Below are positions 1,531 to 63,332 of a stretch of 64,000 nt of DNA, one piece after another. The translations under genes were made by a program, and so were the position numbers. The number at the start of each line of letters is the position of its first letter. Position 1 is the first letter of the stretch. Below the pieces are notes generated by a model. That model saw nothing but the letters and a program-made list of their open reading frames with translations. It was not told where the DNA came from and did no database searches. Source of the stretch: Flavobacteriales bacterium (GTDB lineage: Bacteria > Bacteroidota > Bacteroidia > Flavobacteriales > UBA7312); assembly GCA_016779995.1 (NCBI GenBank), contig JADHMO010000001.1:74638-138637 (forward strand), in the 5' to 3' direction.

Positions 1531-2480
1531 TATTTGCTTAAATAGTTAGAAATGTTTTGTTCTACTCTATTGAGAACATCTGAGACGTCTTCTTTGACAA
1601 ATTTCTCACCAGTGATATGCTCAAAAAGCTCTATGTATCTTTCCGAAACAGATTCACAAAACTCTTTACTCATCTCAGGAATACTTTGACCATCTTTACC
1701 TTGAAAACCATTTTCTATGAGCCATTGTCTAACAAACTCTTTAGATAATTGCTTTTGTGAATTTCCTGCTTTTAGATTTTCTTCATAGCCTTCTATGTAA
1801 AAATAACGTGATGAATCTGGAGTGTGAATTTCATCAATAAGAGTAATCTCACCATTAGCATCTTTACCGAATTCATATTTAGTATCGACAAGAATAAGCC
1901 CTTTGTCTGCTGCTAACTCTGTTCCTCTCTGAAAAAGTTCTCTAGTATATTTCTCTAATAAGATATAATCTTCCTCTGAAACTAAACCTTGAGCAAGTAT
2001 TTCTTCTCTAGAAATATCTTCGTCATGCCCTACTTCTGCTTTGGTAGTAGGTGTAATTAGCGGTTGTTCAAACTTTTGATTCTCAACCATACCATCTGGC
2101 ATAGGTACACCGCATAACATGCGTTTGCCGTCTCTATACTCTCTCCAAGCATGTCCTGTAAGGTATCCTCTTATTACCATTTCTACTAGAAAAGGCTCAC
2201 ATCTTTTACCAATGGTTACCGATGGATCTGGTGTAGATTCTTTCCAGTTTTGGACAATGTCAGAAGTAGCGTCCAAAAACTTAGAAGCTATTTGATTTAG
2301 TACTTGCCCTTTGTATGGAATTCCCTCGGGAAGAACATGGTCAAATGCTGATATTCTATCCGATGCAATCATCACCAATTGCTCATCTCCAATACTATAT
2401 ACGTCCCTTACTTTTCCTTTGTAAAGGTTTTTTTGGTTTGGAAAATTAAAATCCGTTTTAATAATTACATTGTTACTCAT
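1530..2480 (-). CDS. purC: phosphoribosylaminoimidazole-succinocarboxamide (SAICAR) synthase
   Basis: [10 protein letters not shown]...ASDRISAFD...LVDTKYEFG are typical of long-form PurC. Confidence 0.93.
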
Positions 2481-3417
2481 TTTTGTCTTGTTTTGATTTG
2501 TATGCTTTAATAATTTTTTTCACTAATTCATGGCGAATAACATCTTTGTCGTCTAGTTTGACAACACTGATACCTTTCACGCCTTTTAACACCTTCAAAG
2601 CCTCTAACAGACCAGAAGGTTGTTTAGATGGTAAGTCTATCTGTGTTTCATCTCCTGTAATAACAAACTTAGCCGATTTACCCATTCTTGTAAGAAACAT
2701 TTTCATTTGTTGACGAGTAGAATTTTGAGCTTCGTCTAATATTACGAATGCATTATCTAAAGTTCTACCTCTCATAAAAGCTAATGGTGCTATTTCTATG
2801 ATTCTATGTTCTATATATTCATTTAACTTCTCTGCCGGAATCATGTCCCTTAGAGCGTCATAAAGTGGTTGTAAGTATGGATCTAACTTTTCTTTTAAAT
2901 CACCTGGCAAAAACCCTAAATTCTCTCCTGCTTCTACGGCAGGTCTTGATAAAATTATTCGTCTGACCTCTTTATTTTTTAAAGCTCTAACAGCAATAGC
3001 AACGGCGGTATATGTTTTTCCTGTTCCTGCTGGTCCTACAGCAAAAAGCATATCGTTTTTTTGAGATTCTTTAACTATCTTACGCTGGTTAACGGTTTTA
3101 GCTTTAATTATTTTTCCGTGAGGACCATGAACCAAAGTATCGTTATCTCCTTCTAACACAGCACTATCCTCTAATATTATACGTTCTATATTGCTATGCG
3201 TAAGACGTTGATATTTACTAAAATGCTCAAGCATCAAAGTAAATTTTTGAACAAATGCTTGTATGGATTCATCGTCACCTATAAGTTTTAGTGTATTGCC
3301 TCGAGCTACACATTTTATCTTTGGAAAGAAATCTAGAATGAAAGACAAAGTCTTGTTATTTGAACCATAAATATCTAGAGGGTTAATACCTCCTAAATCT
3401 ATAATTTTTTCACCCAT
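2473..3417 (-). CDS. phoH: PhoH-family ATPase
   Basis: Walker [10 protein letters not shown], then [32 protein letters not shown] and ILDEAQN. Overlaps purC by 8 nt. Confidence 0.93.
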
Positions 3418-9248: not shown

Positions 9249-9298
9249 TGCAAATAGCTTATATTAGCAAACAATTAAAACAACAATAAACCACTATT

Positions 9299-10183
9299 AT
9301 GAAAAATATACTTCTAATCATATTAGTTATCGCTACTACTCAAGTAAATGCCCAATTTGAAAAAGGAAATTGGTTTCTTGGTGCTTCAAGTAGTAATATT
9401 AATTTCAGCTCAACTACTAACTCAGAAAACACTATCGATGTCACTTTTACGGGTTTTAGAGATACTTTAGTTAATGCTACAGACAGTTTGAACTTGGACT
9501 TTTTATTCCCCTATTCTTATAAATTAGACCAGGATAAACAAAGTGAGTTTAATGTCAATCTAAAAATGGGATATTTTATTGCTAATAAGCTAATGCTTGG
9601 TGTAGGCTTTGGATATGACACTGAAACAAGTCTTTTCAAAACAAATCCTGATTCTGAGATTTCTAATGCTAGTTTAGCAGATAGTATGATAAATGTTTGG
9701 TTTACAGGTCTTCCAGATGTAACCACTAATGGTACAACTTATGCTAATCACTATTTAGAACTTTATAGCTTGGTGGCCGCATCGGTTGATAATGACTTAA
9801 CATATTCTAAAACTTTAATGACGATTTCTCCTTTTGTCAGATACAACTTTCAACTAAGAAAAGGTAACTCCATCTTCGTTGATGGTTCCTACAGAATGGC
9901 CTCTGGAAAAGAAGAAGTTAAAGATGCTATCAGTTCAGTTAGCCAAACAACAGAACTAGCCTCTTCTACAATTAATTTAGGCTTAGGTTTTTCTGCCTTT
10001 TTATCTAATAAATTTAGTATTGAACCGCAATTCAATTACTATATGTACAACTCTACAGCTACTATGAAAGAAGATGCTATACATCCAATTTTAAGTGTTG
10101 CTGATATGGGAGAAAAAACCACAGAGAGAACAATTGCTGGATCTGGAATAAACTTTTCAGTAGGTTTATCTTTCTACTTCTAA
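9299..10183 (+). CDS. outer-membrane beta-barrel protein (uncharacterised)
   Basis: Signal peptide ...TQVNAQ, alternating beta-strand pattern, C-terminal ...GLSFYF aromatic OMP signature. Confidence 0.5.
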   Translation: MKNILLIILVIATTQVNAQFEKGNWFLGASSSNINFSSTTNSENTIDVTFTGFRDTLVNATDSLNLDFLFPYSYKLDQDKQSEFNVNLKMGYFIANKLMLGVGFGYDTETSLFKTNPDSEISNASLADSMINVWFTGLPDVTTNGTTYANHYLELYSLVAASVDNDLTYSKTLMTISPFVRYNFQLRKGNSIFVDGSYRMASGKEEVKDAISSVSQTTELASSTINLGLGFSAFLSNKFSIEPQFNYYMYNSTATMKEDAIHPILSVADMGEKTTERTIAGSGINFSVGLSFYF

Positions 10184-14850: not shown

Positions 14851-16017
14851 TTATTGTCTGAAAATCTTTTTGCCTGAACGGATATAAACACCCTTTGGTT
14901 GATTTTCAATTTGATTGATTTTTCTTCCAAACAAATCGAAAAAGACATCGTCTTGAGTTTGATTGATAGAGTAATCTTCTATTGAAGTTGTACTTCTCAC
15001 ATCAAAAACAATGGTTCCTGGTGATACACCACAATCAAATTCAGAAACTAAATTGTTGTCTGCATCATAAATGTGTACTTTTCCATACGTAGAATAGTCC
15101 GTTTCGGAAGCGTATAGATAATTATTGACTTCATCGTAAGCTAACTCATAAAAGTTTTGATTGATTCCCAAAGGATTACCCGAAGATAATAGCGTTGCTG
15201 GATCCCATTCTAACAAAACAGAATCCATTGATATTTGAAAGTTGATTTTATCCCCTCGTAAACAAGATGTACCACAACCTGTACTCACATCAGAAACATT
15301 AATAGTAGTTGAAGAATGTGTACTTAAATCTACTTTTGAAAAGGATGCACCAGACCAGTTTTTATTATTAACAGTATAAATATAGTTGTCTGTAATCATC
15401 ATATTATCGGTATTAGTAGCATCCGAGCCCAAATCTATTTCCTCCAAATAACTCAAGGTATTTAAATCCAATACGCCAATTAGTGATTTTTCATTGCCCC
15501 ATTCGAAACCATTATTAATTGCCACATAAAGTTTATTATCGGTATGTACCATATTCTGAGTAGTCCATTTAGGGCCTTCAGTAGTATCTAATTCTGAAAT
15601 AAAAGTTAAATCAGATTTTGAATAAATTTGAAAGTATGAATCAAAACTTACTCCATACTCTCCTCTTGAAACAAATAAATTGTCATTGACAATTAGTATA
15701 TTTCTTACTCCAGTAACTGATTGACTAGCTAACAACTCATATGTATTCAAATCATACTTGAGAAGTTGTGTATCAGCAGCTATATAGAAATAATCACCAT
15801 TAATAATCATATCTGAAGCAAAACGAGCTCCCTCTATTGTGTCTACTATTGAGTAATTGTTAGTGACAGGATCATAGCTTCCAATAGTAACAGGAGTTTC
15901 TATTTCTCCAGTTGTGTAATTGTAACGACCTTCATTAAGTATCAATACTTGATTAACTACATTTTGTGCTACAACACCTTGATAAATAAGGTATAACACT
16001 AATACTACTTTTTTCAT
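14851..16017 (-). CDS. secreted YncE/DUF5074-like beta-propeller protein with short T9SS-like C-terminal tail; cobalamin-riboswitch controlled
   Basis: Sec signal peptide MKKVVLVLYLIYQGVVAQ with no lipobox Cys. LILNEGRYN... start and repeated ~45-aa blade-like segments. C-terminus ...VFFDLFGRKINQIENQPKGVYIRSGKKIFRQ resembles the last strands of a type-A T9SS CTD. An RF00174-like leader lies directly upstream. Confidence 0.7.
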   Translation of the reverse strand: MKKVVLVLYLIYQGVVAQNVVNQVLILNEGRYNYTTGEIETPVTIGSYDPVTNNYSIVDTIEGARFASDMIINGDYFYIAADTQLLKYDLNTYELLASQSVTGVRNILIVNDNLFVSRGEYGVSFDSYFQIYSKSDLTFISELDTTEGPKWTTQNMVHTDNKLYVAINNGFEWGNEKSLIGVLDLNTLSYLEEIDLGSDATNTDNMMITDNYIYTVNNKNWSGASFSKVDLSTHSSTTINVSDVSTGCGTSCLRGDKINFQISMDSVLLEWDPATLLSSGNPLGINQNFYELAYDEVNNYLYASETDYSTYGKVHIYDADNNLVSEFDCGVSPGTIVFDVRSTTSIEDYSINQTQDDVFFDLFGRKINQIENQPKGVYIRSGKKIFRQ

Positions 16018-16044
16018 TCTATTTTTTTAAGTTTATAGACAAAT

Positions 16045-16232
16045 ACTAAGACCACCTTATCCCGAGGTTTTCCGTTCGTTTGTTATGGCAGGTCTTCTGA
16101 CTTGCTCTCCTAAGTGGCCTTCCCATTCTTACAGAACAGTGGACTGTGGATCTTAGGTTCTTTATGAGCTTACAGCTGCGGGAACAGTTGAGGACTTACA
16201 CCTCCTTCCCTATTAATTCTTTTCAGAAACCG
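16045..16232 (-). promoter_or_regulatory. cobalamin (B12) riboswitch
   Basis: The minus strand reads AAUAGGGAAGGAGGUGUAAGUCCUCAACUGUUCCCGCAGCUGUAAGC...AGUCCACUG...GGGAAGGCCA...AAGUCAGAAGACCUGCC. All conserved aptamer blocks are present, including the B12 box (plus-strand 16087-16102). It lies between a consensus promoter and the ATG at 16017. Confidence 0.9.
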
Positions 16233-16240
16233 TAACGCCA

Positions 16241-16273
16241 CAAAGTTAGCCCTATTTCTTAATAAAAATCAAA
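16241..16273 (-). promoter_or_regulatory. promoter of the riboswitch transcript (TTTG-N21-TAACTTTG)
   Basis: The -7 box is the reverse complement of 16241-16248 and the -33 TTTG is the reverse complement of 16270-16273. This places +1 a few nt upstream of the aptamer. Confidence 0.55.
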
Positions 16274-16282
16274 AAAATGCCC

Positions 16283-16290
16283 TATATTTG
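16283..16290 (+). promoter_or_regulatory. -7 box (TATATTTG) for T9SS type-B gene copy 1
   Basis: Exact TAnnTTTG, 31 nt upstream of ATG 16322. Conserved in the duplicated copy at 18755-18762. Confidence 0.5.
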
Positions 16291-16321
16291 TTATTTACTT
16301 ACTTAAAGCCGATAAATTGTG

Positions 16322-18433
16322 ATGAAACGCTTACTTATTTACTCTTTTACTATTCTTTCTTTTTTATCATTTTCACAACAAATTGCTGTATATGACTTTG
16401 AAAATTTGTCTGAGGGTGATATTAATGGTCAAGATGGATGGCAATATAGCTCATCGTTGTCATCATTAGATAATGGATACAATTGCCCAGTAATTGGGAA
16501 TCCGTTAGTCACTGAGGTTAGTGTGCTTGGTAACTCAGGAAACTATCTAGCTGGTAAGGCTATACGTACTGGAAGTGGTTATGATAATCAAATTGTATTA
16601 ATAAGCAGAAAAAATAACGCTGATTGGTCATTCCCCTCTTTACAAAATAAACAATTTTTGATGTTTGAATTCGTAATGGGTTTGGGCTGTATGAATAGAT
16701 CTGTAAAATTAGGATTCGATGAAAACATGGATGGAAACTATGGTGAAAATTGTGGATTAGAAGATATAAATGAAGCGAGTTTTGGGTTAAGTTGGTCTGT
16801 ATGTGATACACCAACTTATTTAAAGCTTTTCGACGCCTCATCAAATGTAATTGCAACAGATAACCAAGTTAACTGGGGGTTTGTTAGGTATTTAATGGTT
16901 ATAGATTTTTATGCTAATGATTATCAAGGTGAGGTTTGTGTTTTAACTAAACATCTGACCGGACAGACCAACTGGTCTCCAGTAGTATCAATGCAAAATT
17001 TAAATATGGGATTTGATTTTTTATCTGCTGAAAAAAATAATCCAATTAACCTTGACGGAATTATTCTTCAAGAAGGAGGTGATGCTGCATATTTTGACGA
17101 TATAAAGTTTACTGTTTTTGATTTATTTCCTAATGATACCACTATTTGTTTAGGCAAGTCTTTAACTTTAGGAAAACCAATAAATGGAGTTTCGTATGTA
17201 TGGAGCACAGCAGAAACTACACCAACTATAGAAATAACTTCAGAAGGTAGCTATTCTGTTGATCTTTACATTAATAATAATAAAATTTTGTCCGATAGTA
17301 CTTATGTCAGATTTAGGGAATTAGATAATGTAATCAATGACACTTCATTTTGTCAGAATGAATCTATAACATTATTTGCAGAACAAAACTTGGACTTTTA
17401 TTTATGGAACGATAGTAGTACGTATAATCAATTACAAATCGATTCACCTGGAGAATACTCATTATATTTCGAGAAAAATGGTTGCATAGGATTCGATACA
17501 ATAGAAGTAATCGAAATTTTAGCTCCAAATATAGACTTAGGTCAAGATATTATAGCTTGTCCTGATGAAGAAGTCATTTTGCAAGCCAACACGAATGGTA
17601 CAGCTTTCAAATGGTCTGATGGTAGTACGCGGCCTACTTTAGAAGTTAAACAATCTGGAGATTATCATTTGACCACCTCTATTGAGCAATGCACAGCTTC
17701 AGATACTATTAACGTAACTTTTATACCTTCAATAAATTTAGGAAATGATACCACCATTTGTGAGGGTGATTTCTTTACCATTGATTTAGATAAAGATTAT
17801 GAAGATTATTCATGGCACGATGGAGATAAAAGCAGTAGTAAAGATATTCATTATGATGGAGAGTATTTTGTAACCGTAAAAAAACTGAATTGTGTTATAC
17901 AATCAGACACTCTCAAAGTAAATAGAGTATTACTTCCTCGCATTTTAGAAACTACTGACGATACTCTCATGTGTGAAAACTTCCCCTTATTACTTAAAGT
18001 AAAAGCTGAATTATACGATAATTTATTATGGTTCGACGGTCATACTGATACTGTAACATTGGTAAGAACTTCAGGAGTGTATTGGGTAAGCACTAGTAAT
18101 GAATGTGGAGTTATTACGGACAGTATTAAAGTAACAACAGAAAATTGTTTATGTAAAGAGTTTTTGCCTGATGTCTTTACACCAAATGGAGATAGATTAA
18201 ATGACTTTTTTGGATATGAATCTAATTGTATTCCTTCAAAATATTATAGTCTTCAGATTTTTAATAGATGGGGAGAACAAATATTTGAGAGTAATGATTA
18301 TAAACAAAAATGGGACGGAACATTCAAAGGCTCAATATGCCCTACTGATATTTATTCGTTTTTGTTAATTGTTCAATACAAAAATGATATGGGGAAAAGA
18401 ACCATCAAAAGAAAATTTAGTTTAATACAGTAA
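16322..18433 (+). CDS. T9SS type-B (gliding-motility-associated C-terminal domain) cargo protein, paralog 1
   Basis: Signal peptide, a ~250-aa N-terminal jelly-roll-like domain, five ~65-aa Cys-containing Ig-like repeats (NDTxxC...YxW..G.t...i.v...G.Y...), and C-terminal FTPNGDRLNDFF...IFNRWGEQIFES...WDGTFKG (type-B CTD). Confidence 0.85.
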   Translation: MKRLLIYSFTILSFLSFSQQIAVYDFENLSEGDINGQDGWQYSSSLSSLDNGYNCPVIGNPLVTEVSVLGNSGNYLAGKAIRTGSGYDNQIVLISRKNNADWSFPSLQNKQFLMFEFVMGLGCMNRSVKLGFDENMDGNYGENCGLEDINEASFGLSWSVCDTPTYLKLFDASSNVIATDNQVNWGFVRYLMVIDFYANDYQGEVCVLTKHLTGQTNWSPVVSMQNLNMGFDFLSAEKNNPINLDGIILQEGGDAAYFDDIKFTVFDLFPNDTTICLGKSLTLGKPINGVSYVWSTAETTPTIEITSEGSYSVDLYINNNKILSDSTYVRFRELDNVINDTSFCQNESITLFAEQNLDFYLWNDSSTYNQLQIDSPGEYSLYFEKNGCIGFDTIEVIEILAPNIDLGQDIIACPDEEVILQANTNGTAFKWSDGSTRPTLEVKQSGDYHLTTSIEQCTASDTINVTFIPSINLGNDTTICEGDFFTIDLDKDYEDYSWHDGDKSSSKDIHYDGEYFVTVKKLNCVIQSDTLKVNRVLLPRILETTDDTLMCENFPLLLKVKAELYDNLLWFDGHTDTVTLVRTSGVYWVSTSNECGVITDSIKVTTENCLCKEFLPDVFTPNGDRLNDFFGYESNCIPSKYYSLQIFNRWGEQIFESNDYKQKWDGTFKGSICPTDIYSFLLIVQYKNDMGKRTIKRKFSLIQ
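17540..18051 (+). repeat. near-identical tract shared with 20011-20522 (putative gene-conversion tract)
   Basis: Perfectly identical runs at 17675-17811 (137 nt), 17864-17970 (107 nt) and 17972-18051 (80 nt). Flanking coding sequence is far more diverged. Confidence 0.85.
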
Positions 18434-18443
18434 ATTACAGGAT

Positions 18444-18581
18444 ATGAAATCATTAATTCTATTTACTCTAGTTATTTTTATAAATATTACTCTTTATGCT
18501 CAGTGCGACTGGTCGGTTGTTTTTTATGACGATTTTGAGCACAACAACGTTGATCCTGGCTATGTTCAAGGTACTGCTTAA
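18444..18581 (+). pseudogene. truncated 5' fragment (45 codons) of a Big_2/T9SS gene: duplication scar
   Basis: It encodes MKSLILFTLVIFINITLYAQCDWSVVFYDDFEHNNVDPGYVQGTA*. The signal peptide plus ...(V/I)(F/I)Y(D/T)D(F/I)E...(V/L)DP aligns with the N-terminus of the 20909 gene (...SQIIYTDIEPDASTTLDP). The ORF stops where homology to the riboswitch copy begins. Confidence 0.55.
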
Positions 18582-18592
18582 GTAAGTGGCTT

Positions 18593-18690
18593 TCCCATTC
18601 TTGTAGAATAATGGACTAAATCTTAAGTTGTTTTTGAGCTTACAGCTGCAGGAACATTTGAAGACTTACACCTCCTTCCCTATTAATTCT
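18593..18690 (-). other. fossil 5' half of a cobalamin riboswitch (truncated, lacks B12 box)
   Basis: The minus strand reads AAUAGGGAAGGAGGUGUAAGUCUUCAAAUGUUCCUGCAGCUGUAAGC...AGUCCAUUA...GGGAAAGCCACUUA and then ends. Invariant positions are mutated and the B12 box and P1 3' strand are absent. Confidence 0.8.
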
Positions 18691-18754
18691 TATATGAACC
18701 CGTAACGATACGAAGTTAGCCCTAATTCTTAAAAAAAATCTCAAAAAATTACCC

Positions 18755-18762
18755 TATATTTG
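18755..18762 (+). promoter_or_regulatory. -7 box (TATATTTG) for T9SS type-B gene copy 2
   Basis: Exact TAnnTTTG. It overlaps the track's TTG start (18760), so ATG 18790 is the likely start. Confidence 0.5.
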
Positions 18763-18789
18763 TTTTCTTACTTAAAGTCAATTAATGTG

Positions 18790-20904
18790 ATGAAATGTTT
18801 ACTTGTTTACTCCTTCACCTTTCTTACTTTTTTATCATTTTCACAACAAGTTGCTATTTACGACTTTGAAAATTTGTCTAATGGAGATATTACTAATCAA
18901 GATGGGTGGCATTACAGTACTTCTATGTCATCTATGAACAATGGATATAATTGTCCAGTTGTTGGAACACCATTGATACCTCAAATTACTGATATGCCGA
19001 CAGATGGCGATTATATAGCTAGTAAAACTATAATGTCTAATAGTGGCTGGGGCAATCAACATGTTGTGATAAGTAGAGTTAATAATAACGATTGGTCATT
19101 TCCATCATTTCAAAACAAACAATTTCTAATTCTTGAATTTGAAATGTCAGGTGGATGTTGGGGTAAGGATTTTAGGTTAGCATTTGATCAAAATAATGAC
19201 GGTAATTTTGGTCAAAACTGTGGACAATCAGACCCAAATGAAGGAAGTTTTGGCATACAATGGTTTGGCTGTAATCAAAACGCAAATCTTAAACTTTTTG
19301 ATGCTAATTCAGAAATGGTAGCGGTGGAAATGGTACTTGAACCTAGCTGGGTAAAATATGTTATGGTTATTGATTTTTATGCAAACAACTATCAAGGTAG
19401 TGCTAGTGTATTTAGAAAGAATTTAACGAACCAAGCTGATTGGGTTACAATAAACACAATGCAAAATATAAATCTAAATTTTGACACAGCCTCAACCGGT
19501 AACAACAACCCATATAACCTAAATGGAATCAAGATAGATCAAGAAGCTGGTGTACAGGCTTATTTTGACAACATCAAATTCACAGTTATGGATTTCAATC
19601 ATAAAGATACCACAGTATGTGAAGGGGAAACCATAACTATAGGCAATCCCATAAGCGGCAGTCAGTATTTATGGAATACTGGAGATACATCATCTACAAT
19701 AGATGTGAATACTGAAGGTATATATTTTGTAGACTTATATAAGGATGGTTTAAAAGTACTTAGAGATAGTATAACTGTTAATCTAATAGAATTACCAAGA
19801 ACTTTTAACGATACTAGCTACTGTGAAGACGAAAATTTTTTACTATTTGCAGGTAGTAATTTGGACTATCATTTTTGGAATGATAGTATATCAGATAATG
19901 AAATAAACATTAATAGTGCTGGAGAATATACCATTCATTATTCAAAAGATGGATGTGTACGTACTGACACCTTTCAAGTAGTAGAAATTGTACCTCCATA
20001 TATGGATTTAGGTCAAGATTTTACAGCTTGCCCTGATGAAGAAGTCATTTTGCAAGCCAACACGAATGGTACAGCTTTCAAATGGTCTGATGGTAGCACA
20101 CAATCTTCTTTAGAAATAAAACAATCTGGAGAATACCATTTGACTACCTCTATTGAGCAATGCACAGCTTCAGATACTATTAACGTAACTTTTATACCTT
20201 CAATAAATTTAGGAAATGATACCACCATTTGTGAGGGTGATTTCTTTACCATTGATTTAGATAAAGATTATGAAGATTATTCTTGGCATGACGGAGATAA
20301 GAGCACTTCAAAAGACATTCATTATGATGGAGAATATTTTGTAACCGTAAAAAAACTGAATTGTGTTATACAATCAGACACTCTCAAAGTAAATAGAGTA
20401 TTACTTCCTCGCATTTTAGAAACTACTGACGATACTCTCATATGTGAAAACTTCCCCTTATTACTTAAAGTAAAAGCTGAATTATACGATAATTTATTAT
20501 GGTTCGACGGTCATACTGATACAGCGACGATAGTTAGAGAATCAGGCGTTTATTGGGTAAGCGCCTCTAATACATGTGGAGTTGAAACAGATAGCATTAA
20601 AGTAAATGCTGAAAATTGTCTATGTGAAGAGTTTTTACCTAATGTATTTACCCCTAATGAAGATAGACTAAACGACTTTTTTGGCTATCAATCGAATTGT
20701 ATCCCTTCAAAATATTACAGCCTACAAATTTTTAATCGCTGGGGAGAACAGATTTTCGAAAGTCGTGATTATAACGAAAAATGGGATGGCACCTACAGAG
20801 GCAAAATTTGTCCTACTGGTGTCTATTCATATTTATTGGTAGTTCAATATAAAAATGATATGGGAAAAAGAACCATCAAAAGAAAATTTAGTTTAAATCA
20901 ATAA
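18790..20904 (+). CDS. T9SS type-B cargo protein, paralog 2
   Basis: Same architecture as 16322-18433. The N-terminal domain is diverged, the central repeats are near-identical, and the type-B CTD reads FTPNEDRLNDFF...IFNRWGEQIFES...WDGTYRG. Confidence 0.85.
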   Translation: MKCLLVYSFTFLTFLSFSQQVAIYDFENLSNGDITNQDGWHYSTSMSSMNNGYNCPVVGTPLIPQITDMPTDGDYIASKTIMSNSGWGNQHVVISRVNNNDWSFPSFQNKQFLILEFEMSGGCWGKDFRLAFDQNNDGNFGQNCGQSDPNEGSFGIQWFGCNQNANLKLFDANSEMVAVEMVLEPSWVKYVMVIDFYANNYQGSASVFRKNLTNQADWVTINTMQNINLNFDTASTGNNNPYNLNGIKIDQEAGVQAYFDNIKFTVMDFNHKDTTVCEGETITIGNPISGSQYLWNTGDTSSTIDVNTEGIYFVDLYKDGLKVLRDSITVNLIELPRTFNDTSYCEDENFLLFAGSNLDYHFWNDSISDNEININSAGEYTIHYSKDGCVRTDTFQVVEIVPPYMDLGQDFTACPDEEVILQANTNGTAFKWSDGSTQSSLEIKQSGEYHLTTSIEQCTASDTINVTFIPSINLGNDTTICEGDFFTIDLDKDYEDYSWHDGDKSTSKDIHYDGEYFVTVKKLNCVIQSDTLKVNRVLLPRILETTDDTLICENFPLLLKVKAELYDNLLWFDGHTDTATIVRESGVYWVSASNTCGVETDSIKVNAENCLCEEFLPNVFTPNEDRLNDFFGYQSNCIPSKYYSLQIFNRWGEQIFESRDYNEKWDGTYRGKICPTGVYSYLLVVQYKNDMGKRTIKRKFSLNQ
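20011..20522 (+). repeat. near-identical tract shared with 17540-18051
   Basis: See the 17540-18051 entry; offset is 2471 nt. Confidence 0.85.
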
Positions 20905-20908
20905 ACTT

Positions 20909-23068
20909 ATGATTATGAAAAAACAAAATGTAATACTGACAAGTATAATTTTATTATTCGCCAAGAGTCTATTTTCTCAAATAATATACACAGATATTGA
21001 GCCAGATGCAAGTACTACTCTAGACCCAATAATTATGTCAGTCAATGGGGTTGTTGAAATAGATTTTAATAACGATGGGAATGCAGAATTTGATTTTAGA
21101 TGGGATGATTATTCATTTATTGGATACGGTTATTTTTCTCACATTACCAACCCTAATAATAATAGTCATACAATGTGGTTAAGTGGAAGCAACAACAGTT
21201 ATAATGCGGGGTATTTGCAAGTCGTTAATGAAAATGAACTTATTGGACCTAATCTTCAAAGTGGTCTGTGGGGAATGACTATACCTGACCCAATAATAGC
21301 AGACTCTGAAAACAATACATTTCAAGAACTTGGGGATAAATACATCGGAGTTCAAATCAACTTAAATGGTATTCTTCATTATGGTTGGATAAGAGTATCA
21401 TTTGATGAGAATAAGACTTTAACTATCAAAGATTATGCCTATCAAAGTTTACCAAATACCGCAATTCTAGCCGGTGCTTCTCAAGATATTTTACCAGAGT
21501 CTCTAGAAATTGAAGGAGAAAATGGAGTTACAACTATATTAAATAGTCAAAGTTTACAAATGATTAGCAATGTACTTCCAAGCAATGCTAGTAATCAAAA
21601 CGTAATTTGGAGTGTAAGTAACGTTAGTGGTTCTGCTACTATAAATAATACTGGATTACTTACGGCCACTTCTTCTGGAACAGTACTTGTTGAAGGAACT
21701 ATTTTAGGTACTACAATTACTGATACAATCTCAATCATAATTAATCCCAATTTGATAACATCTTTGGTGATTTTTGGAGAAAATAATAACTCTACTGTTT
21801 TGATTGGGCAAACACTACAGATGTATTCCACAATTGTACCCGGTAATGCAGATAATACAAATTTGACCTGGACAGTAAGCGATCAGGGAGGTAGTGCTAC
21901 TATTGCCGACAATGGACTATTAACTGGTGTAACAGAAGGTCAAGTTTTGGTAACAGCCAGCACCAATGATGGTTCAAATTTAAGTGATACAAAATACATT
22001 ACAGTATTACCTGTCAATTTAGATTCCATTTCAATATATTCAGATGGCTTTGTCACAGAAATTGATTTCAATGAAAGCGTTCAAATGAGTGTCATATTTT
22101 ATCCAGAAAATGCCACCTACCAAGAAGTAAGTTGGGATATAGTTGAACTAGAAGCTAATGCAAGCATAAATCAAAACGGTATGGTTTATGGACAAAGTGG
22201 TTCTCAAGGAATTGTTCAAGTTGTTGCTACTTCTACTATTTCTAATTCAGTATCAGATACGTTTGACTTATTCATTAACTACATACCTATCACTACTATC
22301 ATTGTTCAGGGAGAAAACGGTTTAATGTCTGTAGATGAAGAAAATGACTTGCAGATGGAGGCTATTGTTAGCCCTTCTAATGCTACATCTTCTAATGTAA
22401 CATGGAGCGTTGAGAATTTAACTGGAGAAGCTACAATTGCATTCGATACAGGCATATTAACAGGTGTTAGTCAAGGAACAGTTAAAGTTATAGCAAATGC
22501 TGCTGATGGCAGTGGTACAATTGGAGATACTATCGTTACTATCAATGAATTGTATCGTTATATAACCTCAATAGAAGTACAAGGAGAAAATGGGGCTACA
22601 TCAATCAATTTGAATGGTTATTTACAAATGAATGCTACAATTTTACCTCAAAATGCTACTAATCCATTGATTGCTTGGACAGTAGTCAACAATACAGGCT
22701 CTGCCTTTATAAATGATGAGGGATTACTTTCACCTACTTCATTAGGTGATGTCATTGTAAAAGCTGTCGCACAAGATGGTTCAAATTTAATCGGACAAGA
22801 AACAATAAACATAACTCAAGCAGTTGGGTTAACTTTTGATAATAATGAAATCACAAAAATATTCCCCAACCCTACTAGTTCGAGTATTTATGTACAGTCT
22901 TCAAAAGATATAGAACATATCAGTTTGTTTTCAATCGATGGAAAATTGATTATGGAGGAAAAGCAGTCGAATTTATTAAATCTGAATAGACTAAGCAATG
23001 GTAGTTATTTAGTAAAAGTAAACTACTTAGACAAAACCTCAGACATTCAACTCATTATGAAACAATAG
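20909..23068 (+). CDS. T9SS type-A cargo protein with five Big_2 (bacterial Ig-like group 2) repeats and an uncharacterised N-terminal domain
   Basis: Five repeats of the pattern LQMxxxVxPxNAxNxxVxWxVxNxxGxATIxxxGLLTxxxxGxVxV. C-terminal IFPNPTSSSIYVQ...NGSYLVKV... type-A CTD. Starts 4 nt after the upstream gene. Confidence 0.85.
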   Translation: MIMKKQNVILTSIILLFAKSLFSQIIYTDIEPDASTTLDPIIMSVNGVVEIDFNNDGNAEFDFRWDDYSFIGYGYFSHITNPNNNSHTMWLSGSNNSYNAGYLQVVNENELIGPNLQSGLWGMTIPDPIIADSENNTFQELGDKYIGVQINLNGILHYGWIRVSFDENKTLTIKDYAYQSLPNTAILAGASQDILPESLEIEGENGVTTILNSQSLQMISNVLPSNASNQNVIWSVSNVSGSATINNTGLLTATSSGTVLVEGTILGTTITDTISIIINPNLITSLVIFGENNNSTVLIGQTLQMYSTIVPGNADNTNLTWTVSDQGGSATIADNGLLTGVTEGQVLVTASTNDGSNLSDTKYITVLPVNLDSISIYSDGFVTEIDFNESVQMSVIFYPENATYQEVSWDIVELEANASINQNGMVYGQSGSQGIVQVVATSTISNSVSDTFDLFINYIPITTIIVQGENGLMSVDEENDLQMEAIVSPSNATSSNVTWSVENLTGEATIAFDTGILTGVSQGTVKVIANAADGSGTIGDTIVTINELYRYITSIEVQGENGATSINLNGYLQMNATILPQNATNPLIAWTVVNNTGSAFINDEGLLSPTSLGDVIVKAVAQDGSNLIGQETINITQAVGLTFDNNEITKIFPNPTSSSIYVQSSKDIEHISLFSIDGKLIMEEKQSNLLNLNRLSNGSYLVKVNYLDKTSDIQLIMKQ

Positions 23069-23072
23069 TGAG

Positions 23073-23909
23073 CTAAAAAGTATCAATAGCTTTGTTGTAG
23101 GCACTTTCAAAAGCTAGTGTATTAATACCTGTTTCTATTTTCTTCTCTTGAGTAAAAGAAAGTAATTTTTCTGTTGGCATATTACCCACTAAATCATCTT
23201 TTGCCATAGGGCAACCGCCATACCCTTTGATAGCTCCATCAAAACGTTTACAACCTGAATTGTATGCTGCTTCAACTTTTTCTCGCCAACTTTCCAAGTG
23301 AGTATGTAGGTGTGCACCCCACTCTATTTGTGGATATTCTTCGATTAGCAAAGAAAATAAAGGCTTGATATTATCTGGATTAGAAACCCCTATTGTATCA
23401 GATAAGGCTAAAGTTTTAACACCCAAATCGGATAGCTTTTCACCCCATTTAGCGACAATATCTTCGTGCCAGTATTCCCCATAAGGATTACCAAATGCCA
23501 TAGATACATATACTACTAGGGATTTATGATGTTTTATACAAGTATTTTGTAATTGCTCAACTAAAGACAGAGATTGGTCAATACTTTTATTAGTATTACG
23601 TTTCTGAAAGTTCTCTGATACTGAAAAAGGATATCCTAAATAATCAATACGGTCAAAAGAACAAGCCTCATCAGCTCCTCTTTGATTGGCAACAATAGCC
23701 AAAAGTCGAGTGTTAGAATCGTCCAACTGAGAGAGGACATTTGCTGTATCTCTCATCTGAGGAATAGCCTTAGGAGACACAAAACTACCAAAGTCTAATG
23801 TATCAAAACCAACTTTCAATAATGAATTGAGATAAGCCACTTTTTGAGCAGTAGGAATAAAGTCTGTAATCCCCTGCATAGCATCTCTAGGACATTCTAT
23901 GATTTTCAT
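23073..23909 (-). CDS. hydroxymethylglutaryl-CoA lyase
   Basis: [13 protein letters not shown]...DTIGV...HLHTH motifs of the HMGL-like TIM-barrel family. Confidence 0.88.
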
Positions 23910-47317: not shown

Positions 47318-47391
47318 TGAACTCGGAGGGAGTCGAACCCCCAACCTCTAGAGCCGTAATCTAGTGCACTATCCAGTTATGCTACGAGTCC
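47318..47391 (-). tRNA. tRNA-Arg (anticodon ACG)
   Basis: The reverse complement folds as a cloverleaf: acceptor GGACUCG/CGAGUUC, anticodon arm CUAGA-UUACGGC-UCUAG, T-arm GGGGG-UUCGACU-CCCUC. 74 nt, with no encoded CCA. Confidence 0.9.
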
Positions 47392-48101: not shown

Positions 48102-51100
48102 CTATCTAAAAAATCGTTTTTTGAAGTTATCAACATCCGTTTCTGAAGACAAATCGTATTGGTATTGAGCTTGTCCCTTAGAGGCTGGTAGCTTCTTTTG
48201 TTGGGATTTCACTTCCAAAATACCAATGTTGTAATCTTCTATTGAAGAACGACTGAGTAATACCTCATTAGAATAGGTAAAGAAATACCACTCGCCAATA
48301 TCTGTTTCTAAATAGACATTAAAGATGTCACCAGAATAATCTTTATTGAGCTCCAGTCGTCCTTTGTACAGCTTATTGATTTGGAAGTCATTAACGTTAC
48401 CCAAGCCTAACATCTTTTTAGACATAATGCTTGAATTTTCTTGATCCCACTCTAGATTAACATCGTAGAAATAAAGGGTTTTCTTTAGTTTAGATGGTAA
48501 CTTTTGAAACTGTCCATACATCTCGTATTCAAAAGATAAATCCTCATCCTTCAAGATTCTTTTAAAATTAGGAATATAAAAACTCTCTTTCATCTCTAAC
48601 TCATCTGCCATTGGGTCGTTAAACAAGTCTTGCCCCATAAATTCCATAGCGTTATTGCTCATGTAAAAATCTAAGGATAACATACACTTAGTTTTAAAGG
48701 TATTCTCTACAGCATTGTAGTTGAAATTACCAATAGTAGAAAGTTCTACTCGTCCTAAATCAAGTCCTAAATTAAACTCTCCCTCTCCTTTCATTATACA
48801 ACCCTCGTTGGTCATCGTAAATTTACTTGCCAAAGAATCAGTTTTATCTTGTACAATAAACATAGAAAGCCCTGTATTATAAGATAAATAACCATTAATA
48901 GGCATCATAACCAAATCCGTTTCTTGCTCTAGTACAGAAAGGAAAGCTGGATAGATTCTATCTTCTGACATGATAGGGCCTACATACAAGTTCTTGCCAT
49001 TTTCGTCAAGTACTTCACCACCTATCGGCAATTGTATGTCTTCTACCCCAACGTAATCGCTGAACTTAACCCAACCGTCTTTGACTAAGTAACATTCGTG
49101 TTGTACTTGAAAAGCACCGTCGTAATAAAACTCTTTCATAGAGCCTTCCATCTTAACAGACCCTTTGTAAGAGAATTGAGGGTTAAACTTAAACCCTCTT
49201 TCTGAGCTAATAGTTCCTATACCCACCGATTGATAAATGCTATCGACATACAAGGAATCAAAGCGAATCAATTGTTCTTCAACACCTCTACCCTTGTAGT
49301 TTACCGAAGCACGACCCGCATAACTTTTACCACCATGAATCGTCACATCAGCATCAAATAATTCGTGGTAGCGTTTATCTCTATTAACTAAAATAGAAGC
49401 GCCTTTAAAACTTCTCATTCTTGCTCCTGTCTCCACCGTAACAGAACCATCAGCAGGATAAATAGCTGCATCGGCAACTAGTATCTCATCCACTTCTTCA
49501 GCATCTATAATGTAATTCTTTAAACTATATGAGGCTTTTCTAGAAACAAAAGACAAGGAATCTTGCTCGGGGTGAGTAGAAACAAACCTAGAGCCACTTC
49601 CGCCCTCAGACACACCCAATTCTATCAAACTTCTATCCATGAACCATTTTAGCTCATCGATAAAACAGATGTATTGGTTTTCAGGAAATGCCACAAATGA
49701 ATTGTTACCGTTAGATTGGAATTTACCTGTTCTTTCTAATAAATTAATCTCCGTACGCAAGTTTACAGACTCAAAGGCAATGGCTTTGAAATCATCAGAG
49801 CGGTGCAAGACAAAATCGGCTGTATCGGCATTAAATTCATTGTGATTGAAGTAGTATAAATTAGAACTTAATTCGGAATCTTCTAGATAAACATTACCTG
49901 CTCCCGTAAGTCCACTAGGGCGAAGATAAAAACGACCATCAAGGGTTGCTTTAGCAGAATACAATACCAAATCTTCGGTCTTTTTTTCTACCATTAGAAC
50001 GTCATCATAAGGTCGCCAATGCTCATATATAGTTTTACCACTAGCCTGAGGAAATTCAGCAATATTGGCTGTTCTTTCGAGGTCAAATGTGTTAGCATGG
50101 GTATTCATAGAATCTGGGAAGAATATATAATCGTCAGACTGTGTAGTCGAAGATAAATAGTCAAACCCTCCTTTACCTCTTAATCCAGATTTGTCTAATG
50201 ATAATCTATTGTTGGCATGAAATTGACCTTTATCGCCATACAAAGGATAGCCCGTTTCTGGAATATCAATCTTGAACCCTAAAGCATTATCTTCTTGCAC
50301 TCTTAATTCTTCTCTAAAACTTGGGAAAATGTTTGCCGAATTCAGCTCACCAGGAAAACTAAGCGAAGAACGGTTGTATGAATCTAAAGAATCTATTTCG
50401 AAAGGGTCTATATCGAAGTAAAAACGCTCTCTATCATATACTCCAGAAAATATTTCTTCTTGGTCGTAATATACCTTAGAACGGTCATAACTTCTGATGA
50501 TTGGGTATTGGGGATAATCTTCTTTCCATATTCCCGATTTATTGATGGTTGTATCGACCAACAATTCGCCATTGGCAATAGTAATTTCATTCTCTAAAGG
50601 TTCTAATACCAACTCCCCTTTTTCATTGTATTTCTCCTGATTGTTAGGAATCCAAACCTCTGTTGAAGCGTCTTTAAAATAAAGTCTAAAATCTTCGTAG
50701 TTAAAGGTTATATCTTCTGAATTTATTCTAAAACGTCCTCCTGCTCCTGCTATTAATCGTCCACCCATAGTGAAATTACGTCCTTCTTTAACAACAATTT
50801 CTTGCTTAGTAGGTAAAGCTATGACATCTCTTACTTCACTCAACTGAACCCGCTTAACGTTAAAAACTTTTAAGTCCATAGTGTTTAAGTCCAGAATAGC
50901 ATTCGCATTGTCTTGTGGTGCACTAGATTTAAAACGAATAACATCGTGGTCTTCCTTTTCTGATTTGGCCATAATATAACGAAGAACGTTATCTTTTACT
51001 CCTACTGTCCCCAATCCAGAATTGTAGGTGATAAAACCTTGCTTAGCCAAATTCATCAAAAAACGAATGTCCTGATCATCGGAATAGCCCGAAAGCCTAA

Positions 51101-52538
51101 CAAAATCATCAATCAAGAATATATTATTGATACCATACTGCTTGTTAAAATTGTTAATCCTAACTAAAGGATGCTGAGCATCTATTCCTAACAATGCATC
51201 AAAATGTTTTTCAGTATAATACCTATTGGACTCAAAAAAGGCTGGCTGACTAGTATTTTCTGGTAAGGTTCCAAAAATGATTTCATCGTCATCGATGTTC
51301 CAACCTAACTTCTGAAAACGCATATCTAAATCGTGATACGAATTGATATAAGGAGCAGAAGATATACCATCTTCATCAGAAATTAAATCCAAACGTCTAT
51401 CTTCTTGGTCATATATAAAATTTAAACCAGGGTGGGTAATAGAGTCATTAGCTAAAATGATTTTTACAGATGCATTAGAGGCTAAAACCCGCTTTCCAGT
51501 AATTGCAATTCTTTCCGAAGAAATACGAACAAATTGCTGACCTTTACGATAGAATATCAAACTTGCTAATTGACCATCTCCTCCCTTGGATACAAAACGG
51601 TTGCCGTACAAAGAATACCCTCCTATAAAATCTACATCTTCAATTAAATCAGAAAGAGTAATTTTCTTATCGTAAGAATCGAATTTAGGATAAGCTACCT
51701 TGCTATCATTCTTGTTCCTTTCAACCAGTTTATTCTCAAGACTTCCTAGTATGGGCTTGTCGTCAAAAACCATTAAATTATAAAAACGCACGGAGTCTGC
51801 TGAAAAGCTAGGTTGCTTTAAAGCAATAGAATACTTTGAAAGTTCGGCATATACTTCGGCAAAACTAAAACCTGCCTTACGCCAATCTATTAAACCTTCA
51901 TTTCCTCGCCATAAACCTTCAATAGGATAAAATGTACCACTAGTTTGGGCTATTTTCATAGTGTCTTGTCTAGCAATACACATCATATCTATGGGCTGAT
52001 TGAACTTTATCACTGGCACACTATCTTCTATAGCAAATTGATAGTTTAAGTTAGAAGTGTACCAACTCAAAGAACGGTTTCTAAAAAGTGTTTTTAGAGT
52101 AAATAAATCGTCGGAAAGGGTGTAAAATTTCAGTAATCTAGAAGTTGGAGAAGTTTCAATCAATAAACTAACTATAGCTGACCAATTATTAAACTGAGTG
52201 TCAAAGGATTCGGCATCTGTAAATGATACTATGGCTTTTAACAAAGACTCAAAATGAGTTGGTCTTTTTCTGTCTTTCAACATTTTGTTGGATAAATCAA
52301 TGATAGAAGATTTTTTATCCGAAGAAAAAGTATTGCCTTCCCACATCTTAGAAAAATCTTTCATCATTTTCTTAGTTTCTTCAGAGGCAGAACCCGTTAG
52401 CATAAAGGTATTGATTTCCTCTAAAAAGACCTTATTGTCATCAGTAAACGCCCTTAACCTCTTGTTTGATTGTGCATAGACAGAGGATGCTAAAATGAAA
52501 AAAGATAATAGAAAAGTTAGTTTTTTAATAGCTTTCAT
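48102..52538 (-). CDS. very large (1478 aa) secreted protein of unknown function
   Basis: Uninterrupted ORF with signal peptide MKAIKKLTFLLSFFILASSVYAQ. I recognise no domain or repeat, and it has no T9SS CTD. The ATG at 52538 overlaps the prmA stop (ATGA). Confidence 0.8.
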   Translation of the reverse strand: MKAIKKLTFLLSFFILASSVYAQSNKRLRAFTDDNKVFLEEINTFMLTGSASEETKKMMKDFSKMWEGNTFSSDKKSSIIDLSNKMLKDRKRPTHFESLLKAIVSFTDAESFDTQFNNWSAIVSLLIETSPTSRLLKFYTLSDDLFTLKTLFRNRSLSWYTSNLNYQFAIEDSVPVIKFNQPIDMMCIARQDTMKIAQTSGTFYPIEGLWRGNEGLIDWRKAGFSFAEVYAELSKYSIALKQPSFSADSVRFYNLMVFDDKPILGSLENKLVERNKNDSKVAYPKFDSYDKKITLSDLIEDVDFIGGYSLYGNRFVSKGGDGQLASLIFYRKGQQFVRISSERIAITGKRVLASNASVKIILANDSITHPGLNFIYDQEDRRLDLISDEDGISSAPYINSYHDLDMRFQKLGWNIDDDEIIFGTLPENTSQPAFFESNRYYTEKHFDALLGIDAQHPLVRINNFNKQYGINNIFLIDDFVRLSGYSDDQDIRFLMNLAKQGFITYNSGLGTVGVKDNVLRYIMAKSEKEDHDVIRFKSSAPQDNANAILDLNTMDLKVFNVKRVQLSEVRDVIALPTKQEIVVKEGRNFTMGGRLIAGAGGRFRINSEDITFNYEDFRLYFKDASTEVWIPNNQEKYNEKGELVLEPLENEITIANGELLVDTTINKSGIWKEDYPQYPIIRSYDRSKVYYDQEEIFSGVYDRERFYFDIDPFEIDSLDSYNRSSLSFPGELNSANIFPSFREELRVQEDNALGFKIDIPETGYPLYGDKGQFHANNRLSLDKSGLRGKGGFDYLSSTTQSDDYIFFPDSMNTHANTFDLERTANIAEFPQASGKTIYEHWRPYDDVLMVEKKTEDLVLYSAKATLDGRFYLRPSGLTGAGNVYLEDSELSSNLYYFNHNEFNADTADFVLHRSDDFKAIAFESVNLRTEINLLERTGKFQSNGNNSFVAFPENQYICFIDELKWFMDRSLIELGVSEGGSGSRFVSTHPEQDSLSFVSRKASYSLKNYIIDAEEVDEILVADAAIYPADGSVTVETGARMRSFKGASILVNRDKRYHELFDADVTIHGGKSYAGRASVNYKGRGVEEQLIRFDSLYVDSIYQSVGIGTISSERGFKFNPQFSYKGSVKMEGSMKEFYYDGAFQVQHECYLVKDGWVKFSDYVGVEDIQLPIGGEVLDENGKNLYVGPIMSEDRIYPAFLSVLEQETDLVMMPINGYLSYNTGLSMFIVQDKTDSLASKFTMTNEGCIMKGEGEFNLGLDLGRVELSTIGNFNYNAVENTFKTKCMLSLDFYMSNNAMEFMGQDLFNDPMADELEMKESFYIPNFKRILKDEDLSFEYEMYGQFQKLPSKLKKTLYFYDVNLEWDQENSSIMSKKMLGLGNVNDFQINKLYKGRLELNKDYSGDIFNVYLETDIGEWYFFTYSNEVLLSRSSIEDYNIGILEVKSQQKKLPASKGQAQYQYDLSSETDVDNFKKRFFR

Positions 52539-53356
52539 AGTTTTTGAAATTTTGCTGTTACCCAATTATTTTTGGAATTATGACTGATGTATTTTAATCC
52601 TTGTCTTTTAGCTTCTTGCTTTATCAAGTCTAAATCTTGCTCGTAAAAACCACTAAACAAAATCAATCCATTTTGAAGCAAATGGCTAGAGTATGCATAC
52701 ATATCTTGAATCAAGATATTTCTATTGATATTGGCTAAAATTATATCAAACTCTCCTTCAATTTTTTCTTTACCACCTTTATGCACTACTATGTTTGAAC
52801 TTCCATTCATACTAATATTTTCTAGTGCATTATTGTAAGCCCATTCTTCAATGTCAATAGCATCAACCTTATTAGAACCTAATTTGTAAGCTAATATTGC
52901 CAATACTGCTGTGCCACAGCCCATATCTAACACTTTCTTATCTTGAAAATCTAAGCTTAGCATAGCCTCCATCATACCATAAGTTGTTGCGTGATGCCCT
53001 GTTCCAAAGGACATTTTTGGGGTAATAATAATTTCATACTCTACTTCTAGTGGTTTATGAAAATCCGCTCGAATACCACACTTACTCCCTATGGTTATGG
53101 GTTGAAAATCAGATTCCCATTTGGCATTCCAATTTTCTTGCTTTATAACTTTATGATTGATGTCAATCTTACAATCCAATTGACTACAAATGCTTTCTAT
53201 ATCAGAAAAGTTAAAATCATCTTCTTTAATGTAGGCTCTTACTCCTTCGTTGATATCCTCAAAGCTTTCAAAATCTAGGTCAGACAGATAGGCTACAAGA
53301 ATTTCACTCCACGGTTGCAGAGGCTGAAATGAAAATATAACTTCTTTATAGTTCAT
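52535..53356 (-). CDS. prmA: ribosomal protein L11 methyltransferase
   Basis: ...FGTGHHATT...VLDMGCGTAVLAI... SAM-binding motifs in a PrmA layout. Confidence 0.88.
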   Translation of the reverse strand: MNYKEVIFSFQPLQPWSEILVAYLSDLDFESFEDINEGVRAYIKEDDFNFSDIESICSQLDCKIDINHKVIKQENWNAKWESDFQPITIGSKCGIRADFHKPLEVEYEIIITPKMSFGTGHHATTYGMMEAMLSLDFQDKKVLDMGCGTAVLAILAYKLGSNKVDAIDIEEWAYNNALENISMNGSSNIVVHKGGKEKIEGEFDIILANINRNILIQDMYAYSSHLLQNGLILFSGFYEQDLDLIKQEAKRQGLKYISHNSKNNWVTAKFQKL

Positions 53357-63245: not shown

Positions 63246-63332
63246 GGAGAGGTGGCTGAGTGGCTGAAAGCGGCACCCTGCTAAGGTGTTATACCGGTAA
63301 CGGTATCGGGGGTTCGAATCCCCCTCTCTCCG
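63246..63332 (+). tRNA. tRNA-Ser (anticodon GCT)
   Basis: Class II cloverleaf: acceptor GGAGAGG/UCUCUCC, anticodon loop CUGCUAA, long variable arm, T-arm GGGGG-UUCGAAU-CCCCC. Confidence 0.92.

Follow-up and report, generated by a model that had tools for sequence, protein, structure and literature searches.

We analysed a window of 64,000 nt (the whole stretch to which all positions below refer) from the metagenome-assembled genome (MAG) of an uncultured marine Flavobacteriales bacterium of the GTDB lineage UBA7312 (assembly GCA_016779995.1, contig JADHMO010000001.1, positions 74,638 to 138,637). Our subject is a pair of tandem genes for type-B cargo of a type IX secretion system (T9SS), copy 1 (c1) and copy 2 (c2), which lie between a cobalamin riboswitch and an HMGL-like gene. 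Both proteins carry the type-B sorting domain above the curated cut-offs (PF13585 and TIGR04131, 55.7 and 51.5 bits for c1, 63.2 and 52.4 bits for c2), as a first-pass annotation of the window had proposed. Each gene is preceded by a spacer with two divergent putative promoters. Between the genes lie a short open reading frame of 45 codons (ORF45) and a truncated copy of the riboswitch aptamer, and a gene with five Big_2 domains follows c2 (Table 1). The accessions of c1 and c2 are consecutive, so the stretch 18434-18789 with ORF45 and the aptamer fragment is apparently unannotated as protein-coding.

Table 1. Features of the riboswitch-to-HMGL interval and its borders (window positions; CTD, C-terminal domain).
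Feature	Position	Strand	Basis or remark
388-aa gene	14851-16017	-	ORF list; candidate target of the intact cobalamin riboswitch; synteny anchor for all comparisons
Intact cobalamin aptamer (ribo-1)	16070-16249	-	Rfam RF00174, 97.2 bits, model positions 1-189
Promoter spacer (two putative promoters of Bacteroidetes type, divergent)	16250-16321	.	Sequence
Copy 1 (c1), type-B T9SS cargo, 703 aa, MBL6662548.1	16322-18433	+	PF13585 / TIGR04131
c1-type N-terminal head cassette	16412-17537	+	Change points at 16412-16444 and 17513-17537
Gene-conversion tract in c1 (partner in c2: 20008-20523)	17537-18052	+	5.4% differences
ORF45, 45-codon stub of a lost beta-type type-B cargo gene	18444-18581	+	Matches the N-termini of P0014 and P0131
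Illegitimate junction GCTTA-AG-TAAGTGGC	18576-18590	.	Comparison with sequences of both parental types
Truncated decaying aptamer (ribo-2 remnant)	18583-18719	-	Rfam 27.1 bits, below the gathering score
Second promoter spacer	18720-18789	.	Sequence copy of 16250-16321
Copy 2 (c2), type-B T9SS cargo, 704 aa, 'orthodox' head, MBL6662549.1	18790-20904	+	PF13585 / TIGR04131
719-aa gene, Big_2 x5, type-A T9SS CTD	20909-23068	+	Pfam and NCBIfam
HMGL-like gene, right border of the variable block	23073-23909	-	Comparison with relatives

Alignment of the interval with itself reveals a direct repeat in which 16111-18449 is collinear with 18583-20920, with 75% identity overall and an offset of ~2468-2472 nt. 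The two units are adjacent and collinear, as in a simple tandem segmental duplication. The 208-nt non-coding part upstream of the genes is 85% identical between the units. The left edge of the repeat is sharp and coincides with the motif TAAGTGGC, located at 16111 (unit 1) and 18583 (unit 2). On the right the homology ends at ~18449/20920, directly after the stop codon and ATGAAA. The stretch 18450-18582, with which unit 1 ends on the right, does not recur at 20921-21054, i.e. after c2. The collinear repeat of the first-pass annotation (offset there 2471-2482 nt) is confirmed by alignment. Its start of homology for the second copy, 18593, is a slip of ten, and its right boundary, ~45 codons inside the next gene, is replaced by the end of homology at ~18449/20920.

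Over 25 related genomes and contigs from metagenomes (L numbers below) yielded the same locus, with the 388-aa gene and the type-B proteins as anchors. The mature part of ORF45, QCDWSVVFYDDFEHNNVDPGYVQGTA, matches the N-terminus of a type-B cargo with an unrelated head, here called beta, that is present in two of these loci. The match is 76% over 91 nt of DNA with P0014 of L032 (E 9e-15) and 78% over 112 nt with P0131 of L035 (E 4e-21), where 24 of the 26 mature residues are identical. ORF45 is the first 45 codons of a different, now-lost beta-type paralog. It had first been taken to resemble the Big_2 gene at 20909. Local and global DNA alignments of 18450-18582 with the 5′ end of this gene and of its L025 and L029 orthologues are non-significant (p 0.18-0.69), and an origin of ORF45 as a fragment of the Big_2 gene was rejected, the protein likeness being confined to the signal peptide with none of significance in the mature part. 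A tblastn search of the window and all loci with ORF45 gave no match. In a word-indexed search ORF45 alone retrieved only itself, and P0014 appeared only via the search with full-length c1.

The junction itself can be read directly. Homology to the beta gene stops at GCTTA and homology to the aptamer begins at TAAGTGGC; the AG in between is a 2-nt filler or, equivalently, the result of a TAAG duplication, and the TAA stop codon of ORF45 is made by the junction. Between beta codon 45 and the aptamer there is no homology but only this filler, which is the feature expected at the illegitimate end of a homology-facilitated illegitimate recombination (HFIR) event. The whole junction, from the end of c1 through ORF45 and the aptamer fragment to the start of c2, occurs at 100% identity in two Logan contigs, L011 (SRR12042686) and L012 (SRR30352463). 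As these stem from other runs, the junction is no artefact of assembly. A chimeric join of two strains with c1-type and c2-type alleles would be conceivable in a MAG, given that both allele types occur in related populations and that short-read contigs break at the repeated stretches. We regard it as scarcely credible: the diagnostic junction cannot come from a collapse of alleles and is found unchanged on the independent L011 and L012, and the 14-15 private substitutions and one deletion of the truncated aptamer mark it as a real, ageing sequence.

The intact aptamer passes RF00174 over the whole model with 97.2 bits (gathering score 31.5 bits). The second copy fails it with 27.1 bits, and its forced full-length alignment has many non-canonical pairs. 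The first-pass annotation had correctly placed the left boundary inside a cobalamin aptamer, and the truncated ORF does meet a piece of riboswitch on the other strand. This piece is not half of one: the remnant keeps the 5′ ~139 of 180 nt, i.e. three quarters of the RNA. The 3′ 41 nt are missing, and the remnant is without the 3′ closing strands, an expression platform or a regulated downstream gene. Orthologous aptamers are intact in every recovered locus (86-103 bits in 15 related loci). The promoter consensus that applies to the boxes in the spacers is the established one of the Bacteroidetes. The putative -7 box of the type-B gene, TATATTTG at 16283-16290 (+), is kept in the second spacer at 18755-18762. 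That of the riboswitch, TAACTTTG at 16248-16241 (-), is accompanied by TTTG at 16273-16270 (-). In the remnant it is privately mutated from TAACTTTG to TAACTTCG at 18718-18711; the matching CAAA is invariant in all functional loci. Across the loci the promoter boxes are conserved where the genes are intact and mutated in deletion scars. The two aptamer copies differ at 20 of 137 nt; 16 of the changes map to the c2 branch and only 1 to that of c1. This agrees with one functional copy under constraint and one fragment in decay, and in our best model the remnant would be non-functional though promoter-bearing.

In divergent lineages the locus has a common layout, with the 388-aa gene, the riboswitch, one type-B gene, the Big_2 gene and the HMGL-like gene in this order (L025-L028 and L029/L030). 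Orthologues of the Big_2 type-A gene are found in L025-L030, L032, L033, and L035, and ancestrally this gene lay directly downstream of the type-B gene. In L031 (8114-8126) it is absent and the type-B gene directly abuts the HMGL-like gene. Single-copy relatives, for which the first-pass annotation had suggested looking, thus exist in L025-L030 and L033. The flanks of the nearest relatives are 92-97% identical to the window at the nucleotide level and 96-99.9% identical among one another, with 94-97% for L033. L033 carries a single intact c2-type gene adjoining a riboswitch of 96.8 bits, and in L034 a c2-type gene forms an out-of-frame fusion with the last Big_2 domain (2425-3313). Deletion scars with c1-type sequence are also found. 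In L015 138 c1-type codons are joined to the final 44 codons of the Big_2 gene (2830-3376), and in L006 (5001-5300), L007 (503-803), and L013 (~3020-3250) 52 c1-type codons are joined to its final ~22 codons. These four pseudogene fusions contain in-frame stops, and their junctions differ and lie at short microhomologies (AATGGA, GATGGAAA). Loss of the block took yet other forms in L016 (2038-2215), the L008 group (9697-9775), and the L009 group (9292-9756); in L009 a fusion ORF of 128 aa, which includes a truncated type-A CTD, survives. The differing scars imply at least five or six independent deletions of the whole block.

Both head types adjoin an intact riboswitch within one tight clade. 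The two head types are old alleles, because close relatives carry either type in this position. The beta gene also lies directly beside the riboswitch in L032 and L035, followed by the Big_2 gene. A clear-cut head swap is seen between L029 (10001-12127, an alpha head, 708 aa) and L032 (2585-4459, a beta head, 624 aa), where the upstream sequence is near-identical and the 3′ modules are 91-92% identical. The 3′ modules cluster by lineage and not by head type, a sign that the modules evolve in concert and that heads are swapped on a conserved stalk. The riboswitch-to-HMGL interval is thus a hypervariable islet of adhesin-like T9SS cargo genes, each with a variable head, an immunoglobulin (Ig)-like stalk and a type-B sorting domain. 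Two further observations were made on these loci. In the L015 remnant nine consecutive diagnostic sites are c2-type (window equivalent 16480-16514), representing either a ~35-nt conversion patch or changes of c1 specific to the window. L035, a long-read, pilon-polished sequence, has broken reading frames in the Na/H exchanger, MutL, HMGL, and beta genes, which are most likely sequencing frameshifts, not pseudogenes.

A comparison of c1 with c2 along their length shows that the copies are a mosaic. Their synonymous divergence (dS) is 2.1-2.3, i.e. saturated, in codons 26-395, 0.14-0.20 in codons 396-560, and 0.7-1.5 in codons 561-703. The middle part contains a converted tract of 515 bp with 5.4% differences and identical runs of 137, 107, 80, and 65 nt. 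In this tract c1 and c2 have 54 states in common against L033, and informative sites that group c1 with c2 and L033 with the outgroup number 25 vs 4-5. Between c2 and L033 dS is 0.12-0.31 up to codon 395, equal to the divergence of the flanks, and 0.6-1.0 beyond. The corresponding change point lies at c2 coordinate 20002, with 6.5% differences between c2 and L033 before it and 15.7% after it. Within 6 nt of it, at 20008, those between c1 and c2 drop from 38% to 5.4%. This breakpoint at ~20002-20008 is located in the shared Ig-stalk region, and the same place is a generic edge of the head cassette. Over the final 380 nt c1 and L033 group together, leaving c2 as an outlier with affinity to the beta gene of L035 (informative sites 14:5:5). 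An origin of the L033 arrangement from that of the window by one deletion was considered and rejected, since the 3′ module of L033 is unlike those of both c1 and c2 (dS 0.5-1.0).

The copy next to the riboswitch is the more unusual one. Amino acid identity to the type-B proteins of L025, L029, and L031 is 65, 57, and 56% for c2 vs 60, 52, and 51% for c1, and at otherwise invariant sites of the head (N-domain) c1 has 32 singleton changes and c2 has 7. Thus c2 is the orthodox copy. The closest relative of the c2 head is the orthologous head of L033, and that of the c1 head is found in L015. A simple duplication would leave the copies mutually closest and of a single age along the unit, and neither is observed. 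The non-coding part of the unit, which had been proposed as an internal reference for divergence rates, fails in this role, as the unit is a mosaic of segments of different ages. Nor do the data bear out that the cargo family expanded here by one duplication in place with divergence afterwards: dS of the heads exceeds 2, against ~0.11 per site in the aptamer fragment, and the c2 head is orthologous to that of L033. We therefore judge a single 2.48-kb duplication with its right breakpoint 45 codons into the Big_2 gene and clock-like divergence afterwards, the model of the first-pass annotation, to be very improbable. It accounts for the collinear homology with its constant offset. ORF45 and the Big_2 gene also begin equally far behind the stop codon, and the signal peptide of ORF45 is as long as that of the L025 Big_2 orthologue (score 48, p ~0.0015 vs shuffles, a likeness carried by the signal peptide). 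The model is refuted by the beta-type identity of ORF45, whose similarity to 5′ ends of Big_2 genes is non-significant, by ages that range from dS 0.14 to >2 along the unit, and by the fact that the copies are not mutually closest in head or C-terminus once L033 is included.

The aptamer fragment provides a date for the junction. Private to it are 14-15 substitutions and one 2-nt deletion, i.e. ~0.11 per site when two H2 states in common with L033 are set aside. The dS of the flanks between the window and the nearest clade is 0.24-0.28, half of which (0.12-0.14) is comparable to this value. The aptamer would thus have been cut off roughly at the split from the nearest clade, far after the divergence of the heads. 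At 16132, 16148, and 16164 the fragment agrees with L033, L034, and L025 in the ancestral state. Derived states are common to the intact riboswitch beside c1 and those of L015, L006, and L016. An old tandem pair whose upstream parts were kept alike by conversion was rejected as a candidate on two grounds. The remnant has L033-type and not ribo-1-type states, and the intact riboswitch of L033 could not be regenerated from a long-decayed remnant.

We consider that the tandem pair is a recombinational graft between old alleles or paralogs and not a clean copy-and-diverge duplication, and put the probability of this reading at about 50%. The layout, the nature of the stub, the breakpoints, the spread of the alleles among relatives and the mosaic ages are direct observations. 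We infer the order of events and their polarity as follows, and the donor DNA may have come from another strain. The ancestor would have had the riboswitch, c1, a beta-type gene and the Big_2 gene in this order. A fragment of the alternative allele, of the single-gene type seen in L033, would have been grafted onto the beta gene and have replaced its head. This graft would have comprised the riboswitch from the equivalent of 16111, both promoters and ~395 codons of orthodox head. Its right crossover would have been homologous, in the shared Ig-stalk region at ~20005, and its left end would have been joined illegitimately to beta codon 45 (GCTTA-AG-TAAGTGGC), which together would make an HFIR-type event. 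The 45-codon beta stub and the truncated, promoter-bearing aptamer would be the leftovers, and the outcome would be a second expressed cargo gene with a promoter supplied by the graft. Gene conversion would later have homogenised the 515-bp tract of both genes. Among the relatives the donor type is seen in L033 and L034 and a beta gene beside the riboswitch in L032 and L035, but no intact recipient with c1 and beta.

The same junction anatomy is predicted if a duplication in place came first. A haplotype with the riboswitch, an orthodox type-B gene, beta and the Big_2 gene would have been duplicated from the aptamer at 16111 to beta codon 45. The intact second beta gene would then have been lost by recombination between similar 3′ modules, the riboswitch-proximal head, with part of the riboswitch, would have been replaced by a c1-type allele through homologous recombination, and 17537-18052 would have been converted. 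Head swapping at this locus is indeed demonstrated by L029 (alpha) and L032 (beta) with their 92%-identical 3′ modules, both head types stand beside the riboswitch in one tight clade, and the cassette edges are natural crossover points. Yet at least three events would be needed after the hypothetical starting haplotype vs one for the graft. This order of events also leaves unexplained why the likeness of c2 to L033 ends exactly at ~20002 and why the C-terminus of c1 is nearer to that of L033 than to that of c2. We therefore hold it to be a serious but unlikely alternative. The polarity could also be reversed: an L033-like locus with riboswitch, c2 and Big_2 gene would have received a foreign segment reaching from the 388-aa gene and riboswitch through c1 to beta codons 1-45, homologously anchored on the left and illegitimately joined within the recipient aptamer at 16111. 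The intact riboswitch beside c1, the truncated aptamer with L033-type states, the beta stub and the ancient divergence of the heads would all be accounted for. In this case, however, c2 should be L033-like throughout, yet its dS to L033 is 0.6-1.0 after codon 395 and its C-terminus is an outlier, and extra replacement events would be required. Thus the reversed polarity seems improbable to us.

Several points weigh against the graft as well. Its intact c1-beta haplotype was not found among the recovered loci and is deduced from the stub alone. The coincident change points lie at a natural edge of the head cassette, so that one event need not have made both. Concerted evolution of the 3′ modules within lineages leaves the assignment of the c2 3′ end to beta weakly supported, and the riboswitch haplotype signal consists of 3-4 sites only. 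In addition, the C-terminal segments are assigned to c1 and c2 from one MAG assembly, as the Logan contigs break in the most similar repeated stretches. Finally, we know of no transformation or DNA-uptake route for this uncultured lineage.

A comparison with known systems places the locus close to the displacement or orphan arrays at polymorphic toxin loci (Rhs, contact-dependent inhibition (CDI) and type VI secretion system (T6SS) effector-immunity clusters), for which an origin by HFIR, a process defined earlier (PMC3240628), has been proposed (PMC5361080). As in these arrays, the homologous anchor would be a conserved gene part, a divergent module would be imported and its other end is illegitimately joined, a displaced truncated remnant of the previous module persists, and related strains carry alternative modules at one locus. 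Unlike in these arrays, the variable module is here the 5′ part (signal peptide and head) and the constant anchor the 3′ part (stalk and CTD), so the graft would have needed a promoter of its own, and it would have carried along three quarters of the riboswitch next door. The cargo also differs, being an adhesin-like T9SS protein without toxin or immunity partner, and the mechanism proposed here is deduced from sequence. With tandem duplication followed by gene conversion the locus has in common the head-to-tail paralogs and a 515-bp tract that is near-identical within the genome and ~14% off its L033 orthologue, and as in concerted paralogs the 3′ modules group by lineage, not by head type. 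It differs from tandem duplication in heads far older than the junction, in a beta stub without a second copy, and in that over parts of its length each copy has a nearer relative in another genome than in its partner. The riboswitch at 16070-16249 is a regular RF00174 member that matches the whole model and precedes the same 388-aa gene in all relatives, in contrast to the second copy, a 5′ fragment below the gathering score with a mutated -7 box and no downstream gene.

T9SS cargo with a type-B CTD includes SprB and PorP/SprF-associated proteins (PMC9143113). Both c1 and c2 resemble SprB-type cargo and Aureispira GhpA in their C-terminal PF13585/TIGR04131 domain and long Ig-like stalk. They are much shorter, no PorP/SprF-like gene lies between the 388-aa and HMGL-like genes (14851 to 23909), and their status as cargo is predicted. 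Their N-termini start with MK and continue with a hydrophobic stretch ending in FSQQ. Neither head type belongs to a Pfam or NCBIfam family. The AlphaFold2 model of c2 (mean pLDDT 72.5) has a poorly modelled all-beta head to which no fold could be assigned, with low confidence for residues 1-110, followed by four to five confident Ig-like sandwiches at residues 270-610 and the C-terminal sorting domain. The best Foldseek matches of this model are fragments of GhpA, a T9SS-secreted grappling-hook protein, and eukaryotic adhesion molecules with Ig chains, and they concern the Ig-like stalk only. From the model c1 and c2 are most likely surface adhesin-like proteins with exchangeable heads. Exact-sequence look-ups with c1 and c2 found no contig on record. 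Beyond the conserved adjacency nothing functional ties the type-B genes to vitamin B12.

The 388-aa gene has orthologues of 65-95% amino acid identity in more than 20 loci, always with the riboswitch in front. It encodes a secreted protein and is the only gene directly behind the riboswitch; a gene for an NhaP-type antiporter is next, and there is no adjacent btuB-like receptor gene. The protein belongs to no Pfam or NCBIfam family. Its PDB matches, YncE-family chains and chains named 'putative surface layer protein', are weak (E 0.3-0.6), and it may be a B12-binding beta-propeller. Elsewhere in the window, unrelated to the repeat, Rfam finds three tRNA genes at 47318-47391 (-), 63246-63332 (+), and 63390-63464 (+), and the largest ORF (1487 aa) is at 48102-52565 (-).

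The dynamics of this locus are a variant of the known behaviour of polymorphic surface-protein loci, an instructive and well-resolved case that is not categorically new. In the graft reading, breakpoints of near-base resolution would show how a T9SS cargo family gains a member by grafting promoter and head of an alternative allele onto a neighbouring paralog and not by copying and drift. The hitch-hiking riboswitch fragment is a rare internal dating mark (~0.11 per site) that exposes the far older age of the heads (dS >2), and the case as a whole cautions that tandem paralogs are not to be read as simple duplications. It also reveals, in uncultured marine Flavobacteriales, a small hot spot where alleles are swapped, genes undergo conversion and microhomology-mediated deletions recur. 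It is a long shot that the head with its promoter is a mobile allelic cassette, repeatedly exchanged, stacked and deleted beside a B12-regulated gene in this streamlined marine lineage. If this were true, the conserved divergent arrangement with the riboswitch would represent a functional tie, e.g. adhesins in the capture of B12 or prey. Alternatively, an antisense transcript independent of B12 could start from the promoter of the aptamer remnant and cover the beta stub and the 3′ end of c1.

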